Assembly: GCA_943359595.1 (NCBI GenBank)
Contig: CALRIA010000003.1
Span: forward strand, 3,179-67,178
Origin: Candidatus Magasanikiibacteriota bacterium
Lineage (GTDB): Bacteria; Patescibacteriota; Patescibacteriia; Magasanikbacterales; GWA2-37-8
Reading direction: 5' to 3'
DNA: 64,000 nt
The translations under genes and the position numbers were made by a program. Shown in pieces: positions 2 to 41,075 of the stretch. The notes beneath the pieces are model-generated. The model saw only the letters and a program-made list of their open reading frames with translations, had not been told where the DNA came from and made no database searches. The first letter of the stretch is position 1; each line of letters starts with the position of its first letter.

Positions 2-928
2 AACTACAAATTTTTTATAGCTATCGTAGCCATATTCATAGTTGGACTTTTTGTCTATTCAACAAAAAACATCGATAATAGCGGCTTAAAAATACCAGTA
101 AAAAATTCGCGTTTACAAGTAGTCACTTCTTTCTACCCCTTATATTTTTTTACCACTCAAATCGTATTGGATAAAGCCGCTGTATACAACATTACTCCCG
201 CTGGAGCCGAACCACATGATTATGAACCCACTACCAGAGATATAGCCAAAATTGAAGATAGCCAGTTGTTAGTTCTCAATGGTGGCAAATTGGAAGCTTG
301 GGGAGAAAATATACAAAATATCTTAAGTAAAAAAAATACAACCATTATAAATGTAGGAGAAACATTAATCAATCAAGATATTACTGAAAATGACAACCAG
401 ATGCGTGATCCACATATTTGGTTAGATCCAGTATTAGCTAAAAAAGAAGTAGAAATAATTGCGAAAAATATAAGTACCATCGATCCGACTAATTCTCAAT
501 TTTACAGCGATAATTCCAAGCTTTTAATTAATAAATTGGAAAATTTAAATAGCCAATTTAAAGCTGGACTAAACAACTGTCAAAAAAAAGATATAATTAC
601 TTCACATGCCGCTTTTGGATATCTAACACGTGAATACAATCTCAACCAAATCACGATTTCTGGTTTATCACCAGATGAAGAACCTTCACCAAAAAAATTG
701 GCCGAAATCACAAAATTAGCTAAAGAAAACCAAATAAACTATATATTTTTTGAAAGTTTAGTAAGCCCAAAATTAGCCAACACTATCGCTCAAGAAATTG
801 GTGCTAAAACTTTGGTGTTAAATCCAATCGAGGGATTAACCGACGAAGAAATCAAAAATGGAAAAAATTACTTTACCGAAATGCAAAATAATTTAACTAA
901 TCTTAAAATTGCTCTAGAATGTCTATAA
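2..928 (+). CDS. znuA: Metal (zinc/manganese) ABC transporter substrate-binding protein, ZnuA/TroA family. It is 5'-partial because the reading frame is open to the window edge.
   Basis: The frame-2 translation runs from position 2 with no stop. The N-terminus has a hydrophobic signal-like segment. Motifs 'VVTSFYPLYFF...AEPHDYEPT' and 'DPHIWLDP' are typical of ZnuA/TroA. The gene sits beside an ABC ATPase and permease. Confidence 0.8.
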   Translation, partial: NYKFFIAIVAIFIVGLFVYSTKNIDNSGLKIPVKNSRLQVVTSFYPLYFFTTQIVLDKAAVYNITPAGAEPHDYEPTTRDIAKIEDSQLLVLNGGKLEAWGENIQNILSKKNTTIINVGETLINQDITENDNQMRDPHIWLDPVLAKKEVEIIAKNISTIDPTNSQFYSDNSKLLINKLENLNSQFKAGLNNCQKKDIITSHAAFGYLTREYNLNQITISGLSPDEEPSPKKLAEITKLAKENQINYIFFESLVSPKLANTIAQEIGAKTLVLNPIEGLTDEEIKNGKNYFTEMQNNLTNLKIALECL

Positions 929-1680
929 ATCACCAAAAAAATATTATTGAGGTAGAAAAAGTATCATTTTCCTATGGTAATGTTGAGGTATTAAAAGATA
1001 TCACTCTTGCTATACATCAGGGAGATTATATTAGTTTAATTGGCCCAAATGGTGGTGGTAAAACCACGCTATTAAAAATTATGCTTGGCCTCATTGAACC
1101 ACAGGCTGGTCAAATAAAATTATTTGGGGAGAAACTTCAAGATTTTAAGGACTGGTCAAAATTAGGATATGTACCACAAAAAGCCATTAATTTCGATCCA
1201 CTTTTCCCTGTTACGGTAAGAGAAGTGGTGGCTATGGGATGCTATGGAAAAAAAGGGTTGCTAAAATGGTTGAACAAAAAAGATCAAACAAATATAGATG
1301 ATGCACTGGCGCAGGTTGAAATGACCAAATATGCCGACAGATTGATTGGTAATTTATCCAGCGGTCAACAGCAACGTGTATTTATTGCTCGTGCCCTAGC
1401 TGGGAAACCAGAAGTAATCTTTTTGGATGAACCAACTGTCGGAGTAGATATCAAAACTCAAGAAGAATTTTATTCCTTGCTCACCCACCTAAATAGTGAC
1501 ATGAATATTACTCTAATCTTAATTTCGCATGATATCGACGTAGTCACCAATGAAGTTACCGAGCTAGCCTGTTTAAACCAAACTTTGGTCTACCACGGTG
1601 AACCAAAAAAATTTATGAAAGGCAACTACCTAGAAACTCTTTATGGCAAAAACGCCCGGTTTATCGATCATAATCACTAA
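919..1680 (+). CDS. znuC: Metal ABC transporter ATP-binding protein (ZnuC-like)
   Basis: Walker A 'GPNGGGKTTLLK', ABC signature 'LSSGQQQRV' and Walker B 'IFLDEPTVGVD' are present. The gene overlaps the znuA stop. Confidence 0.85.
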   Translation: MSINHQKNIIEVEKVSFSYGNVEVLKDITLAIHQGDYISLIGPNGGGKTTLLKIMLGLIEPQAGQIKLFGEKLQDFKDWSKLGYVPQKAINFDPLFPVTVREVVAMGCYGKKGLLKWLNKKDQTNIDDALAQVEMTKYADRLIGNLSSGQQQRVFIARALAGKPEVIFLDEPTVGVDIKTQEEFYSLLTHLNSDMNITLILISHDIDVVTNEVTELACLNQTLVYHGEPKKFMKGNYLETLYGKNARFIDHNH

Positions 1681-1687
1681 GTAATAT

Positions 1688-2488
1688 ATGTTAGAAATTT
1701 TTCAATACGGTTTTATTGTGCGAGGATTGGAAGCAGGCATTTTAATTGGTTTAATCGCTCCATTAATCGGTATATTTTTAGTGTTACGACGATATTCTCT
1801 AATTGCTGACACCCTATCCCATGTATCTTTGGCGGGAGTAGCAGTTGGATTATTATTGAAAATAAATCCATTATGGACCGCTCTAGGTGCTTCAGCTTTA
1901 TCTTCAATTGCTATTGAACGCCTACGTACCAGTAAAAAAATTTACGGAGAAACTGCTCTCTCTATTTTTCTATCTGGAAGTTTAGCTCTAGCAATAGTAT
2001 TAATCGGATTAGCCCACGGCTTCAGTGTTGACCTATTTAGCTATTTATTTGGAAGTATCGTGACTGTAAAACAGATAGACGTCTATATTATTCTCGGACT
2101 AAGCGTCCTAATTGCTTTGTCAGTTTTTCTTTTTTATAAAGAATTAATTTATATCGCTTTTGACGAAGAAGCGTCCACCGTCAGTGGTCTACCAGTAAAG
2201 ATATTTAACACCTTGTTTGTTTTATTAGCGGCAATAGTGATCGCCATTTCTATACCTATAATTGGAATTTTATTAATCTCAGCATTATTAGTATTACCAA
2301 CTATTACTGCTTTACAATTAAAACAAAGTTTTACAAAGACATTGCTCTGGGCGGAAATAATTTCAGTATTTTCTATTATTACTGGAATAATCACTTCCTT
2401 TTATTTAAACATTTCCTCTGGTGGCACTATTGTGTTGATCATGTTAACTATTTTTGGAATAGTATTATCCATCTATGGAAAAAAATAA
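1688..2488 (+). CDS. znuB: Metal ABC transporter permease (ZnuB-like)
   Basis: Polytopic hydrophobic 266-aa protein of ABC-3 permease type, directly downstream of the ATPase. Confidence 0.8.
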   Translation: MLEIFQYGFIVRGLEAGILIGLIAPLIGIFLVLRRYSLIADTLSHVSLAGVAVGLLLKINPLWTALGASALSSIAIERLRTSKKIYGETALSIFLSGSLALAIVLIGLAHGFSVDLFSYLFGSIVTVKQIDVYIILGLSVLIALSVFLFYKELIYIAFDEEASTVSGLPVKIFNTLFVLLAAIVIAISIPIIGILLISALLVLPTITALQLKQSFTKTLLWAEIISVFSIITGIITSFYLNISSGGTIVLIMLTIFGIVLSIYGKK

Positions 2489-2897
2489 ACAAAATAAAAT
2501 ATCGTCGATCAAAGAAAGGAACACCCCCATTCGCACTGCCCTACTAGAAATATTATCAAAGATTAAAAAACCTCTAACAACTCAAGAGTTACTATTAATC
2601 TTGGCAAAAAAAGAAATTAAAGCAAACAAAACTACTATATACAGACAGCTAGAATCACTAAAAGAAAATAACATGGTGAACGAAGTTCACTTCAACGACC
2701 GTAATACTCGCTATGAATTAAACAGCAAAGATACTCACCATCATCACCTCATCTGCAAAAAATGTAAAAAAATAGAAGATATTACTTTGTTAGAAGATTT
2801 GCAATATCAAGAAAAAATGATCTTGAAAAAAAGTAAATTTAAAGTCACACAACATTTTTTAGAATTTTTTGGACTTTGTAAAAATTGTCAAAAATAA
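2475..2897 (+). CDS. zur: Fur-family metalloregulator, probably Zur
   Basis: 140 aa with an N-terminal wHTH-like region. 'HHHHLICKKCKKIEDI' and the C-terminal 'CKNCQK' (CxxC pairs) are typical of Fur/Zur. The gene overlaps the end of the znu operon. Confidence 0.6.
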   Translation: MEKNKQNKISSIKERNTPIRTALLEILSKIKKPLTTQELLLILAKKEIKANKTTIYRQLESLKENNMVNEVHFNDRNTRYELNSKDTHHHHLICKKCKKIEDITLLEDLQYQEKMILKKSKFKVTQHFLEFFGLCKNCQK

Positions 2898-3017
2898 CTA
2901 CAATAAAAAAATCACCGACCACTCTGCTCTACACCCAAATAAAAATTTAGATACAAAGCAGTTTGGTGGTCGATGACTCTTCCTCCTCCCTACCGTCCTT
3001 GTCCAGAACGAGAAATT

Positions 3018-3215
3018 TCAGACACGTTTCTGTCCACAACGTCCGCACACGACTTGGTGTGCCAGGTTTTGATGCCCGCACTCTAGCTTTGAAACTGACC
3101 GCATCGTCGACGTACGACAACGCCAAGTTTTCTTCTGTGAAAAATAGCCGAGTCGAATCATAGCAGCAAAGAACAGCAATACCGCCGCAATGAGCAATTC
3201 AATCTTCCAATTCAT
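3018..3215 (-). CDS. Small membrane-anchored Cys-rich (zinc-ribbon-like) protein in a GC-rich islet; hypothetical
   Basis: ATG start with upstream 'AGAGGTG' ribosome-binding site. N-terminal hydrophobic helix, then the cysteines 'WRCR...ECGH...CGRCG'. Local GC is far above the surrounding DNA. Confidence 0.4.
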   Translation of the reverse strand: MNWKIELLIAAVLLFFAAMIRLGYFSQKKTWRCRTSTMRSVSKLECGHQNLAHQVVCGRCGQKRV

Positions 3216-3465
3216 GATTCACCTCTGGTTAGGGCGCACGCGCCAGTTATTCTCCCTTATCACACGGGAGAAAAATATTCCAATATATTTTAATTAGAAA
3301 ATTATTCTCCCAAATGACAACTATAAAAAGAGCAAAATCTTTAAAAGACCGTTTACTATAACATAATTATTAAAAAAAGTCAATATACAAGCAGTTTTAC
3401 CTTATTAATAACAACAAAGCAGCACCGCCAAACTCAATATGAGGAGATTCTGATGAATTAAGAAA

Positions 3466-3495
3466 AACAGGACGAAAGTCCTGTTTTTCTTTTTG
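3466..3495. terminator. Hairpin with flanking T/A runs (aacaggac-gaaa-gtcctgtt). Likely terminator for the minus-strand tRNA-Gly.
   Basis: Seen in sequence: 8-bp perfect stem, 4-nt loop, T-runs on both sides. Confidence 0.5.
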
Positions 3496-3567
3496 AGCGG
3501 GTGACGGGAGTCGAACCCGTGTTACCAGTTTGGAAAACTGGAATAATAGCCGTTATATGACACCCGC
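3496..3567 (-). tRNA. tRNA-Gly (anticodon UCC)
   Basis: Manual fold of the reverse complement 'GCGGGTG...TTCGACT...CACCCGC'. Acceptor stem is 7 bp. Anticodon stem is CCAGT/ACTGG with loop TTTCCAA. T-arm is ACGGG-TTCGACT-CCCGT. Confidence 0.8.
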
Positions 3568-3771
3568 AAATGAGTAGCAAAATGACAAAATTTATTTTGT
3601 CATTTCCTACGAATGCCGCGGGAGTACTTTAGTACACCCGCAAGGCAATAATCAACTGAATATGAGAATATATTACAAAATTATCAACAAAAAGTCAACC
3701 CCGAGTGTTGACTAAATTTTTAAAAAATTATAAAATAAATTGTATAAATTAAATACATATTAATTTTAAAT

Positions 3772-33047: not shown

Positions 33048-33719
33048 TTACCACTCTATTCCTCTTTTCCCATGTTTTCTTAAATATTCATTACATTTAG
33101 AAAAATGTTTACAGCCAAAAAAACCAGAGTAGGCTGACAATGGTGAAGGATGCGGTGCCTCCAAAATCAAATGTTTTTTACTATCAATCAACGTCTTTTT
33201 ACTTCTAGCATAACTCCCCCAAAGCATAAAAACGACGTGCTCTCGTTTATCGGAAATCGTTTTAACGACCATATCGGTAAGCTCTTCCCAACCCTTTTCT
33301 CGATGTGAAGCCGGATTATTGGCCACTACAGTTAGAATAGCGTTTAAAAGTAAGACACCTTGTTTGGCCCATGATATCAAATTCCCAGTTGTAAGATCTT
33401 TTCTTATCCCCAAATCATTTTGTATTTCTTTGTAAATATTTTGTAGTGACGGTGGCACCTTAACATTTTCCGGTACAGAAAAACTGAGACCATGTGCTTG
33501 ATTTTCACCATGATAAGGATCTTGGCCCAAAATTACCACCTGAACATTGGAAAAAGTGGTTAACCAAAAGGCTCTAAAAATATCCTGCGGTTTTGGGTAG
33601 ATAGATTTTTTAACATATTCTTCACGCACAAAATCAGCCAATTTCTGAAAACGTTCCGAAGAAAAATAATCCTGTAATATTTTCGCCCATTCTGGCTCAA
33701 TATCTACCTGTTTTGACAT
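33048..33719 (-). CDS. ung: Uracil-DNA glycosylase, family 1
   Basis: 'VVILGQDPYHGENQAHGLSFSV' and 'HPSPLSA' motifs. Confidence 0.9.
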   Translation of the reverse strand: MSKQVDIEPEWAKILQDYFSSERFQKLADFVREEYVKKSIYPKPQDIFRAFWLTTFSNVQVVILGQDPYHGENQAHGLSFSVPENVKVPPSLQNIYKEIQNDLGIRKDLTTGNLISWAKQGVLLLNAILTVVANNPASHREKGWEELTDMVVKTISDKREHVVFMLWGSYARSKKTLIDSKKHLILEAPHPSPLSAYSGFFGCKHFSKCNEYLRKHGKRGIEW

Positions 33720-33799
33720 AGTTGTAATAAAATTATTATTATATATTATTCTATCATGAATGATTGTTTAGACAAAATTACAAAGTGAGAAACAAAAAA

Positions 33800-33865
33800 A
33801 TATTTTAAACACAAAGACCCTCGCTCGGACATCCACTTTTTCAAGTGAACACCGAGACGAGGGTC
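33800..33865 (-). terminator. Long hairpin (gaccctcgctcgg / ccgagacgagggtc) followed by a T-rich run on the minus strand
   Basis: Roughly 13-bp stem with a 1-nt bulge. Downstream of the 33928..34350 ORF. Confidence 0.45.
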
Positions 33866-33927
33866 TAAGAAACCAAGGACCGGACATACGACACCGAAGT
33901 GCCGAGAATCCGAATGACCAAAGTTTC

Positions 33928-34350
33928 TTACTCGCAAGCGACGAGAACGCCGGCGAGTGGAAAAAGTCGATCGCGGAGAGCGCCCAGGTGGACGTACGGA
34001 CGACCACCCTGGATGAAAGCAAACGGCGCAAAGACGACATCTTCCGCGTCCACCACCCGAGCATTCTCGCTGATTGCAAGAACGCACCACCATTTTTTCA
34101 TCTCCTTGGGATGATTTTGAAGGACGTCGGCGAGATCGCCAACGTTCCCGAGAGTAAACCCAGCAGTCGTGAGACGCACGGCGGCTTGTTCGCCCGTCTC
34201 GTTACTGAGACACGGTTCCACCCGTAAATTCACACCAGTGCCATTGACCCAGTTGCACTTCTCGAAGAGCGACTGGAGGTTCTCACTAGAATCGGCGGCG
34301 CCACATTTGCCTTTTATTGCCAGGTTGAACTGGCCGGTTGTATTTTTCAT
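33928..34350 (-). CDS. Hypothetical protein encoded in a GC-rich islet (140 aa from the ATG; 143 aa from the GTG)
   Basis: AGGAG-N8-ATG ribosome-binding site, balanced amino-acid composition with several Cys, hairpin terminator downstream. GC is far above the flanking DNA. No recognisable family. Confidence 0.45.
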   Translation of the reverse strand: MKNTTGQFNLAIKGKCGAADSSENLQSLFEKCNWVNGTGVNLRVEPCLSNETGEQAAVRLTTAGFTLGNVGDLADVLQNHPKEMKKWWCVLAISENARVVDAEDVVFAPFAFIQGGRPYVHLGALRDRLFPLAGVLVACE

Positions 34351-34758
34351 CGTATACACTCCTGCTCACAGGTAATCCACCCCAACGAAAGACACTACCA
34401 GTGTCTAACCCCAAAATGGTACGCCTATAAGCACAACAGACTAGAAACAATTTCCAGCCTTCTTTCTATCTTATTTAGCTTAAATAAGGCAAAAAGAAAA
34501 CTAGTAATAATATTAAAGAATGGATTATTTGGCTAGAATAACAAGTGAGTATAGCATAAAATGATGATTTTGTCAATAATATGTCCTGTAAAGATGTTCT
34601 AACTGCATATTTATGGCTATGCTTAAAGAAAAAGCGACGCACTTGCGTCGCTCAATCTGTCTTGGCGGTGTGTGATTGACGTTATCAGAACTAATGTTAC
34701 AACCTCTCCATGACAACTTAAAATTCCTCATCTGCGCGCTTTAGGTAATTCGCTGTAA

Positions 34759-35517
34759 TTATGATACCAGCTTTTGCATTTTTAGAACACCGTTTACATC
34801 AATAATCTGTATATTTTTATCTTTTATGAAATCCCTAACGCCTTGACTAACTCCGCCTAGACTAATAATAATTCCTTGCGTTACCCCAGCGGATTGCATT
34901 GCTCCATACAGATCTCTAGCGACATGAGGCCCAACTTGTTTTTTATGCGCCTTGCATTGTACAAATATTTTGAAATCATTATCAGCTGTAAGTATTAAAT
35001 CAATACCGCCGTCCCCAGTGCTTTTTGTCTTAATGACCGATGAAAAATGTCCAGATTTTTGAAACAATTTTGAAACAGCTTCCTCAAATTCAAAACCTCC
35101 TAATGAGAACCAATATCCCGCTTCAGCCTTTTTTGCTTCTAAAAGTTTTTCTTTCTTCGCATCTTCCAAGACTTCCTCGTAAGTGTTTAAAGCTTTTAAA
35201 TATTTTGAATAACGCATGCCAAGTGGGTCCATTTTCTTATTAGGAAAAACTAAACTTCCAACAAGTAGCCCAATTATTGGTAAATTTAAATCAAGCCTTT
35301 TCCTTCGATTTTCAAGTTGTTCATTAAGGACTGCGGTCTTCTGATTCTTTTCATACGCTATTTGGGCCATTTTTAACTGTTCAGGATCATATAGCTGAAA
35401 ATTCTCAGCAATAGGCTGTTTTAAGTCTTGCCCTAGTATGGTTCTCTGGTCCATCTTTCGTAATTCTTGTATGAAATCCGAAAAAACATCGTCTTTTAGT
35501 TTATCGCCATTATTCAT
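34759..35517 (-). CDS. Mrr_cat (restriction endonuclease-like) domain protein with N-terminal coiled coil
   Basis: 'STGDGGIDLIL...IFVQCKAHKKQVGPHVARDLYGAM' matches the PD-(D/E)xK Mrr catalytic-domain pattern. Confidence 0.6.
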   Translation of the reverse strand: MNNGDKLKDDVFSDFIQELRKMDQRTILGQDLKQPIAENFQLYDPEQLKMAQIAYEKNQKTAVLNEQLENRRKRLDLNLPIIGLLVGSLVFPNKKMDPLGMRYSKYLKALNTYEEVLEDAKKEKLLEAKKAEAGYWFSLGGFEFEEAVSKLFQKSGHFSSVIKTKSTGDGGIDLILTADNDFKIFVQCKAHKKQVGPHVARDLYGAMQSAGVTQGIIISLGGVSQGVRDFIKDKNIQIIDVNGVLKMQKLVS

Positions 35518-40860: not shown

Positions 40861-40967
40861 GGCTACGTGTCTTCTGGTGATCCCTTTCGGAATCCAACAA
40901 CCTTTCGATTGTTGACTAAACGAATAATACCAGAGACGGCGTAGCCATCTCTATATTCGTTTAGTTT
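40861..40967. repeat. Cluster of interleaved inverted repeats: GGCTACG..TCTGGT / ACCAGA..CGTAGCC, and ACTAAACGAATA / TATTCGTTTAGT
   Basis: Read directly. The second pair is a 12-bp perfect inverted repeat. Confidence 0.6.
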
Positions 40968-41075
40968 TTCGACCGTGCCCTGTGCATAACACAAAGTTTA
41001 GGTCTTTAAATTGTTGTGTGTATATTACCAAATAGTTGCCAAAAAATCAATAACACCAAGTAATAACCACCATTT

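Follow-up and report, generated by a model that had tools for sequence, protein, structure and literature searches.

This report concerns a GC-rich islet (GC, guanine plus cytosine) in the window, i.e. the whole stretch of 64,000 nucleotides (nt) analysed here, which comes from a Candidatus Magasanikiibacteriota bacterium. The islet lies directly after zur, the regulator gene that follows the zinc importer genes znuA, znuC and znuB, and comparison with related loci indicates that it is a minus-strand gene (3215..3018) that codes for a protein, is restricted to one lineage and has escaped annotation. The predicted product is a protein of 65 amino acids (aa) in which a transmembrane (TM) helix is followed by a domain with four invariant cysteines (Cys4). 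The reading favoured here, with a probability of roughly 0.72, is that of an unannotated gene for a TM-anchored Cys4 protein that most likely serves as an accessory of zinc homeostasis. As far as the available sequences reach, the family is confined to a handful of Magasanikbacteria, with zur as its neighbour in every case. It represents a new family of orphan small proteins, though of a kind already familiar, combining a TM anchor with a Cys4 ribbon, and the finding is a modest one.

Coding status of the GC-rich islet

Together with its flanking signals the gene forms a cassette, an expression unit of approximately 490 nt, the centre of which consists of:

3018..3215, minus strand: protein-coding gene of 65 aa, from the list of open reading frames (ORFs), conserved in six relatives; sequence MNWKIELLIAAVLLFFAAMIRLGYFSQKKTWRCRTSTMRSVSKLECGHQNLAHQVVCGRCGQKRV
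3220..3225, minus strand: Shine-Dalgarno (SD) sequence GAGGTG, 4 nt before the ATG, with GAGG or GGAG equivalents in the relatives

A 65-codon ORF in GC-rich DNA is by itself no evidence of a gene, because two further ORFs, of 59 and 66 aa, overlap this one. The relatives are more informative. Scanning genome assemblies with the Zur protein identified three close loci (L001, L002 and L003), the closest being metagenome-assembled genomes (MAGs) of Magasanikbacteria; in L002 and L003, a syntenic GC-rich islet again lies directly after zur. A profile search returned a single database protein, P0001 (84 aa), encoded on the 692-nt ENA contig L011, and exact matches to a 21-mer taken from the cassette's conserved 3' end led to the metagenome contigs L012, L013 and L015; a fourth match to this 21-mer, L014, was discarded as a chance match on a contig of 61% GC. 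The seven loci compared throughout are the window, L002 and L003 (Magasanikbacteria-type MAGs), L011, and L012, L013 and L015 (JGI metagenome contigs).

The same frame is kept in all six relatives at E values of 1e-10 to 3e-13. Conservation of the alternative frame on the plus strand was not found in the six related loci, and the alternative frame on the minus strand matches the relatives only through the nucleotide-conserved 3' element described below. Nucleotide identity of the ORF is only 52-61%, compared with 74-87% for the neighbouring znuC, znuB and zur. Over the 34-codon conserved domain, the proportion of synonymous differences (pS) is 0.60-0.94, i.e. saturated, and that of non-synonymous differences (pN) is 0.12-0.35. 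The ratio of non-synonymous to synonymous rates (dN/dS) is 0.03-0.29 wherever it is computable, the exception being the near-identical pair L012 and L015 (0.62), and the variable columns at codon positions 1, 2 and 3 of this domain number 21, 15 and 31 of 34. The amino acids were kept while the DNA diverged, and the body of the islet is therefore a coding gene under purifying selection, not an RNA gene. This bears out one of the two alternatives offered by the initial annotation, namely a minus-strand 65-aa ORF with a good ribosome-binding site that encodes a membrane-anchored, Cys-rich small protein.

The other alternative, that the islet is an undescribed structured RNA in which the ORF is incidental, has gained nothing from the analysis. 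It could draw on the fact that RNA genes often account for GC-rich patches where a genome is AT-rich, the tRNAs of this window being among its other GC peaks, and on the conserved hairpins carried by both ends of the cassette. Against this, comparison of 2900-3300 with Rfam gave no match at the gathering thresholds, leaving the stretch without a known RNA family, and at E <= 10 only noise-level microRNA models (14.9-19.9 bits) touched 2895-2993. Nor is there excess stability in the folding of the 331-nt stretch relative to dinucleotide shuffles on either strand (z = -0.18 and +0.68). Conservation of structure is limited to the hairpins of the untranslated regions (UTRs), while the ORF body shows a codon-position substitution pattern; its low nucleotide identity, third-position turnover and preserved amino acids are the opposite of what characterises an RNA gene. 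The initial annotation would have given up the protein reading if the nucleotide structure had been conserved and the ORF had not; the reverse is observed. For the ORF body a structured RNA is rejected, and for the islet as a whole such a reading is hardly tenable.

The compositional contrast described initially is genuine. The GC content of the whole window is 34.3%, with 150-nt segments having a mean of 0.343 and a standard deviation (sd) of 0.061; between 2926 and 3271, such segments have a GC content of at least 0.47 throughout and peak at 0.54, approximately 3.2 sd above the mean. Only one non-tRNA stretch in the 64 kilobases (kb), at 33799-34446, exceeds this. The ORF itself has a GC content of 0.482, compared with 0.392 +/- 0.019 expected from simulations using its own amino acids and the codon usage of the window, and a GC content at third codon positions (GC3) of 0.508, compared with an expected 0.306 +/- 0.052, a level reached in 2 of 5000 simulations. 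Approximately one third of the GC excess reflects amino acid composition (Cys, Arg, Ala, Gly and Pro), and the rest synonymous codon choice. GC3 is also high in L002 (0.66) and L003 (0.62), compared with 0.25-0.31 in the neighbouring genes. Because GC3 is high in every lineage despite the saturation of synonymous sites, the bias is a maintained one and not the trace of a recent transfer.

Databases hold very little of this family. A word-indexed protein search with the single sequence gave no match and, with profiles, retrieved P0001 only, out of 5.8 billion clustered proteins; when 1.84 billion representatives were searched exhaustively with phmmer, P0001 was again the only real match, a further one, P0002, being dismissed as a spurious repeat protein. 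Looking up contigs by the exact sequence of the window protein returned no record, and no paralogue turned up in the window or at any of the loci. No relatives were detected by tblastn against phages and plasmids or by a scan of viral contigs, and a literature search found nothing relevant.

The predicted membrane anchor and Cys4 domain

Two segments of the gene account for most of the protein:

3138..3209, minus strand: codons of the TM helix (residues 3-26), a helix in the AlphaFold2 (AF2) model with a predicted local distance difference test score (pLDDT) of 84-86
3024..3125, minus strand: codons of the conserved domain, W31-R-C33-x12-C46-x3-N50-x6-C57-x2-C60-x3-R64, from the alignment of seven proteins

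The order first proposed, a TM helix followed by a Cys-rich tail (CRC...CGH...CGRCG), is upheld by the alignment. Kyte-Doolittle hydropathy reaches 2.3-3.1 over 19 residues in all seven proteins, each of which also has a neutral or acidic N-terminal flank and a cluster of K and R after the helix. Because these positive charges lie on the C-terminal flank, the positive-inside rule predicts an N-out/C-in topology, which would place the Cys4 domain in the cytoplasm at the membrane surface.

Twelve columns are invariant among the seven proteins (W31, R32, C33, T37, R39, S42, E45, C46, N50, C57, C60 and R64), and the family pattern after the TM helix is W-R-C-x-[AT]-x-T-[IM]-R-[ST]-x-S-[KQ]-x-E-C-x3-N-x6-C-x2-C-x3-R. 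Within it, C46-G-x2-N-x6-C57-x2-C60-G corresponds to the usual second half of a bacterial zinc ribbon. In the first knuckle, K-P-E-C-G takes the place of the classical C-P-x-C-G, so that C46 is the only cysteine there; the invariant Cys33, 13 residues upstream, could be the obvious substitute as a fourth ligand. The domain would then be expected to bind one Zn2+, although this is suggested by the pattern of cysteines alone, since the first CxxC is absent and the domain is modelled poorly.

Two known kinds of zinc module resemble this domain. The ribbons of Pfam (Zn_Ribbon_1 PF13240, Zn_ribbon_3 PF13248 and DZR PF12773) gave sub-threshold matches to the C-terminal half, C-G-x2-N-x6-C-x2-C-G, in five of the seven members, at best with E 5e-5 (Zn_ribbon_3 and Zn_Ribbon_1). 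As predicted here, these ribbons combine a Cys4 module in the cytoplasm with one TM helix, often in uncharacterised proteins. They differ in that the family described here has a KPEC first knuckle with the cysteine displaced 13 residues upstream, an order of TM helix and then ribbon, and sequence relatives limited to the seven loci. The zinc-ribbon-like label of the initial annotation is a reasonable one, although the scores stay below the Pfam cutoffs and the first CxxC is missing.

The second resemblance is to RanBP2/NZF fingers (W-x-C-x2-4-C-x3-N-x6-C-x2-C), with which the W-x-C, the C-x3-N-x6-C-x2-C spacing and the invariant Asn agree exactly. A profile search of the PDB placed NZF/RanBP2 fingers at the top over C-x3-N-x6-C-x2-C (E 0.14), together with eS31 ribbons, none of them significantly. 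The proteins score 12.8-15.1 bits against the RanBP2/NZF model (PF00641), the cutoff of which is 27, and their first two cysteines are separated by 12 residues compared with 2-4 in the fingers; overall, the E values for this similarity (0.014-0.14) are not significant. NZF fingers belong mostly to eukaryotes, and the likeness has probably arisen by convergence towards a common geometry of the ribbon.

L012 and L015 are identical over approximately 880 nt except for 16 substitutions, 11 of them non-synonymous, within approximately 70 nt, the ~800 nt around them showing 0 differences; this patch (L012 ~310-380, L015 ~2541-2611) corresponds to the codons of the zinc-ribbon loop. A diversity-generating retroelement was considered as its source but is not supported, as no template repeat or second copy of the ORF occurs in the 64-kb window or in any of the loci. 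Short-tract recombination or local diversifying selection are possible sources. In L013, a near-perfect palindrome of 30 nt lies inside the ORF copy (3550-3579, ATTTCGAAACCCG...CGGGTTTCGAAAT) and coincides with the sole loss of the histidine of 'CGH'.

The 5' leader and the 3' element

Upstream of the coding region, the cassette comprises:

3355..3383, minus strand: predicted sigma-70-type promoter TTGACT-17-TATAGT with extended TG, matching at 10/12 positions and the best in 2700-3700
3257..3321, minus strand: long AT-rich leader hairpin of ~60 nt, from RNAfold of the leaders
3233..3244, minus strand: GC-rich palindrome or small hairpin GGCGCGTGCGCC in the 5' UTR, ~8-20 nt upstream of the ribosome-binding site

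Predicted promoters homologous to that of the window align in all six relatives. The arms of the leader hairpin (GGGAGAAUAAU... and ...AUUUUUCUCCC) are flanked by UCAU and GUGUGA; it recurs with different arm sequences in L003, L011 and L013, and is dispensable for the cassette, because the short leaders of L002, L012 and L015 are devoid of it. The GC-rich palindrome, by contrast with this, is found in all seven cassettes, as GGCGCGTGCGCC (an exact match for which is unique in the window), GGCGCGTGCC or GGGCGCGAGCC, and is a candidate mRNA 5' hairpin or protein-binding site.

Downstream of the stop codon, the cassette ends in a second set of elements:

2991..3017, minus strand: spacer from the stop codon to the polypurine tract, a degenerate remnant of the mini-ORF region of the relatives
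2977..2990, minus strand: polypurine tract GGGAGGAGGAAGAG, mainly single-stranded, just 5' of the terminator hairpin
2912..2976, minus strand: long terminator hairpin with an 11-base-pair (bp) lower stem UCAUCGACCAC/GUGGUCGRUGA, an internal loop and a 16-bp upper stem
2905..2911, minus strand: U-tract TTTTTTT completing the intrinsic terminator, 8 nt from the zur stop codon

In the six relatives, a mini-ORF with an AGGAGG SD sequence directly follows the main stop codon and reads M-R-T-[ST]-T-G-P-P-stop (MHQSTGPPK in L013). It lies at 5455-5508 in L002, 5456-5509 in L003 and 426-480 in L011, with equivalents in L012, L015 and L013; most of its changes affect third codon positions, and a covarying hairpin extends over its stop codon. 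Ribosomes classically stall at an ending of the Pro-Pro-stop type. The window has lost the mini-ORF, with both start codon and SD sequence absent from 2991-3017, and the distance from the main stop codon to the polypurine tract is 31 nt, compared with 50-55 nt in the relatives. The genes efp and epmA-like lie approximately 0.7 kb from this region in the window.

The polypurine tract is unique in the window and invariant in five of the six distinct sequences, L003 differing by a single G>A change; in the minimum free energy (MFE) fold, pairing with the U-tract is possible for its final six bases (GAAGAG). The terminator hairpin has 27-33 bp and an MFE of approximately -37 to -42 kcal/mol across all copies. 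When its 27 pairs are followed through the six distinct sequences, 96.9% of the cells are paired and three pairs have undergone compensatory changes. Between the window and L002 or L003, identity of the 3' element is 90%, and between L002 and L003 it is 98%; znuC, znuB and zur are 74-79% identical between the window and these two loci, which makes the 3' element better conserved than any neighbouring gene. Two alternative identities for it were rejected. It is not coding, whether from an ATC start or in the frame giving GREEEESSTTKLLCI, as indels in the loop break the frames and conservation follows base-pairing; and it is not an integron attC site or a repetitive extragenic palindrome or miniature inverted-repeat element (REP/MITE), as it is present in a single copy, R''/R' core sites are not evident by inspection and the cassette has its own promoter.

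This degree of conservation raises the question of whether the 3' element is the functionally dominant part of the cassette, as a small RNA derived from the 3' UTR or as an insulator or terminator governing convergent zur-znu transcription, with the protein being secondary. Such a view is compatible with the coding gene favoured above, not exclusive of it. It accords with an identity of 90-98%, compared with 74-87% for neighbouring genes and 52-61% for the ORF, with the maintenance of structure by compensatory changes, with the element occurring only where the cassette occurs and once in the window, and with the conserved PP-stop mini-ORF and covarying hairpin that precede it in six relatives. 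A strong terminator between convergent genes is nevertheless ordinary, the sample amounts to six distinct sequences from one clade, and the loss of the mini-ORF from the window copy marks that part as dispensable; furthermore, neither a target or partner sequence nor an Rfam family was identified for the element. Dominance of the 3' element is considered decidedly unlikely.

On the plus strand, 2905-2990 reads CUCUUCCUCCUCCC, an anti-Shine-Dalgarno-like tract in the presumed 3' UTR of zur. The U-tract is absent after the hairpin in this direction, because of which transcripts of zur may read into the cassette as antisense RNA. Beyond the far side of the cassette, which in the window adjoins a tRNA-Gly gene (3495-3567, minus strand), a symmetric hairpin with flanking A- and T-runs (AAGAAAAACAGGACGAAAGTCCTGTTTTTCTTTTT) is found at 3459-3491, just downstream of that tRNA. 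This hairpin resembles a bidirectional terminator, and read-through from zur would meet in it the earliest terminator of the plus strand.

Linkage to zur and the origin of the cassette

As initially stated, the islet directly follows a zur-znu cluster, the members of which are:

167..928, plus strand: ZnuA (PF01297, E 1.5e-73)
919..1680, plus strand: ABC ATPase (znuC)
1688..2488, plus strand: ABC-3 permease (znuB)
2475..2897, plus strand: FUR-family regulator (zur), E 6e-24, with its stop codon at 2895-2897

The cassette is convergent with zur in seven of seven loci. Its other neighbour varies: tRNA-Gly in the window and L012, a 173-aa ORF in L002, a 99-aa ORF in L003, an 843-aa ORF in L013 and a divergent 332-aa ORF in L015. 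Because the gene has stayed at the 3' end of zur-znuACB while the other flank was rearranged, an accessory of zinc homeostasis is its most likely role, a role made plausible by this fixed linkage alone. The protein might be a subunit, tethered to the membrane, that binds or senses zinc and either acts on the ZnuBC importer or buffers zinc at the membrane.

Small proteins of metal homeostasis are found beside a metalloregulator elsewhere, as with MntS of Escherichia coli by mntR, and MgtS and KdpF are small membrane proteins that modulate transporters. MntS is soluble and regulated by MntR. As a proposed functional analogy, the likeness consists in very small size, a position beside a metal regulator or transporter locus and a history of being missed by annotation; the differences are that no sequence similarity exists and that a Zur box is absent here.

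This absence concerns a candidate Zur operator, (T/A)GCAAC-TAA-GTTGCA, which overlaps the znuA promoter in L002 (twice), L003, L013 and, with one mismatch, L001. The same palindrome is present in L005, upstream of a zur match. Copies were located at:

L002: 2406-2420 and 2473-2487
L003: 2480-2494
L013: ~394-408
L005: 52-66

The window's own copy would lie off its left edge, because the window starts inside znuA. The suggestion in the initial annotation of a zinc-related small protein, with a Zur box to be sought upstream, is consequently sustained by the linkage to zur and not by the operator, and the cassette itself appears not to be under direct Zur control, to the extent that the operator, itself a prediction, is correctly assigned.

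Several observations weigh against the favoured reading. With up to three mismatches, the candidate operator has no match in the window or in the seven cassette leaders. The seven loci belong to one narrow clade, such that the synteny may be inherited and not selected, and the close relative L001, the Zur of which is 77% identical, is without the cassette, which is dispensable on that account. His48 of 'CGH' is not conserved, being Phe in L013. The zinc-ribbon scores from Pfam are all below the cutoffs (at best 23.1 bits, compared with 27 and 25; for the window protein 16.0 bits, compared with 25). In addition to the missing first CxxC knuckle, the Cys domain has a pLDDT below 55, mostly 46-52, in an AF2 model built from a 2-sequence alignment. 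A further point is the high GC3, for which mRNA stability and slow translation are guesses.

Some of these points would suit a selfish or horizontally acquired module for a small membrane protein unrelated to zinc, for which adjacency to zur was a historical accident; an example would be a type I toxin-like peptide with its mRNA controlled by antisense read-through from zur. Like the toxins of the Hok, Fst, TxpA and BsrG class, the product is small and hydrophobic, with no more than 70 aa and an N-terminal TM helix, follows a strong SD sequence and is encoded by an mRNA with highly structured ends. The gene converges on a neighbouring transcript, the 3' end of which it overlaps, and the hairpin of the cassette lacks a plus-strand U-tract. 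Atypical codon usage, the lack of the cassette in L001 and of a Zur box, and a position beside tRNA-Gly in two genomes, in a rearranging region, point the same way. However, an invariant Cys4/W/N domain under purifying selection is not a trait of known type I toxins, the gene is present in single copy and was not found on mobile elements, and no antisense promoter was predicted inside the islet, on the plus strand within 2900-3330. Copies or relatives were found neither in phages, plasmids and viral contigs nor elsewhere in the genome, no donor lineage was detectable among 1.84 to 5.8 billion proteins, and the saturation of synonymous sites between lineages argues against recent transfer. The foreign cassette envisaged by the initial annotation was accordingly not demonstrated, the high GC3 being old and no donor or relative having been found outside the clade, and a selfish module is regarded as unlikely.

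A more elaborate form of the zinc-accessory reading would make the cassette a two-layer zinc-homeostasis device of this clade of the candidate phyla radiation (CPR), with GC-rich codons maintained by selection on the mRNA. In the first layer, the membrane-tethered Cys4 protein would sense cytoplasmic zinc and gate the ZnuBC importer post-translationally. In the second, the ultra-conserved 3' end, made up of the polypurine 'super-SD' and the 27-33-bp hairpin and joined in most relatives by the Pro-Pro-stop mini-ORF, would act as a switch or insulator at the RNA level, coupling translation status to convergent zur-znu transcription. This extension is improbable as a whole.

Two further features of the window were recorded. 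The islet at 33799-34446 is stronger than the one beside zur, with 150-nt GC of up to 0.61, and holds a minus-strand ORF of 143 aa (33928..34359) for which no Pfam match was found. On one side of it are an ORF at 33048..33719, uracil-DNA-glycosylase-like by eye, and a tRNA-Ser gene, and on the other an Mrr-type restriction endonuclease (34759..35517); this islet may be a genuinely foreign insertion. A LOOT RNA (Rfam RF03000) is found at 40879-41004 on the minus strand, with 84.5 bits. The LOOT motif is known from OD1, OP11 and TM7 lineages, and would fit the Magasanikbacteria affiliation of the closest loci.

The practical value of these results is modest, comprising a single orphan family, a well-defined 490-nt unit and a candidate for the Zur operator of the clade. 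The two puzzling features of the family are its maintained use of GC-rich codons and the conserved RNA element at its 3' end. The results illustrate that GC-rich islets of AT-rich genomes do not have to be RNA genes or recent imports, and that a conserved small protein can be almost entirely missed by gene callers and databases, with a single entry in 5.8 billion clustered proteins. The small accessory proteins of CPR bacteria are poorly known, because these organisms have tiny genomes and have mostly not been cultured. If the favoured reading is true, a zinc-binding protein that is anchored in the membrane and tied to zur-znuACB would qualify as a candidate for a new component of zinc homeostasis in these organisms.

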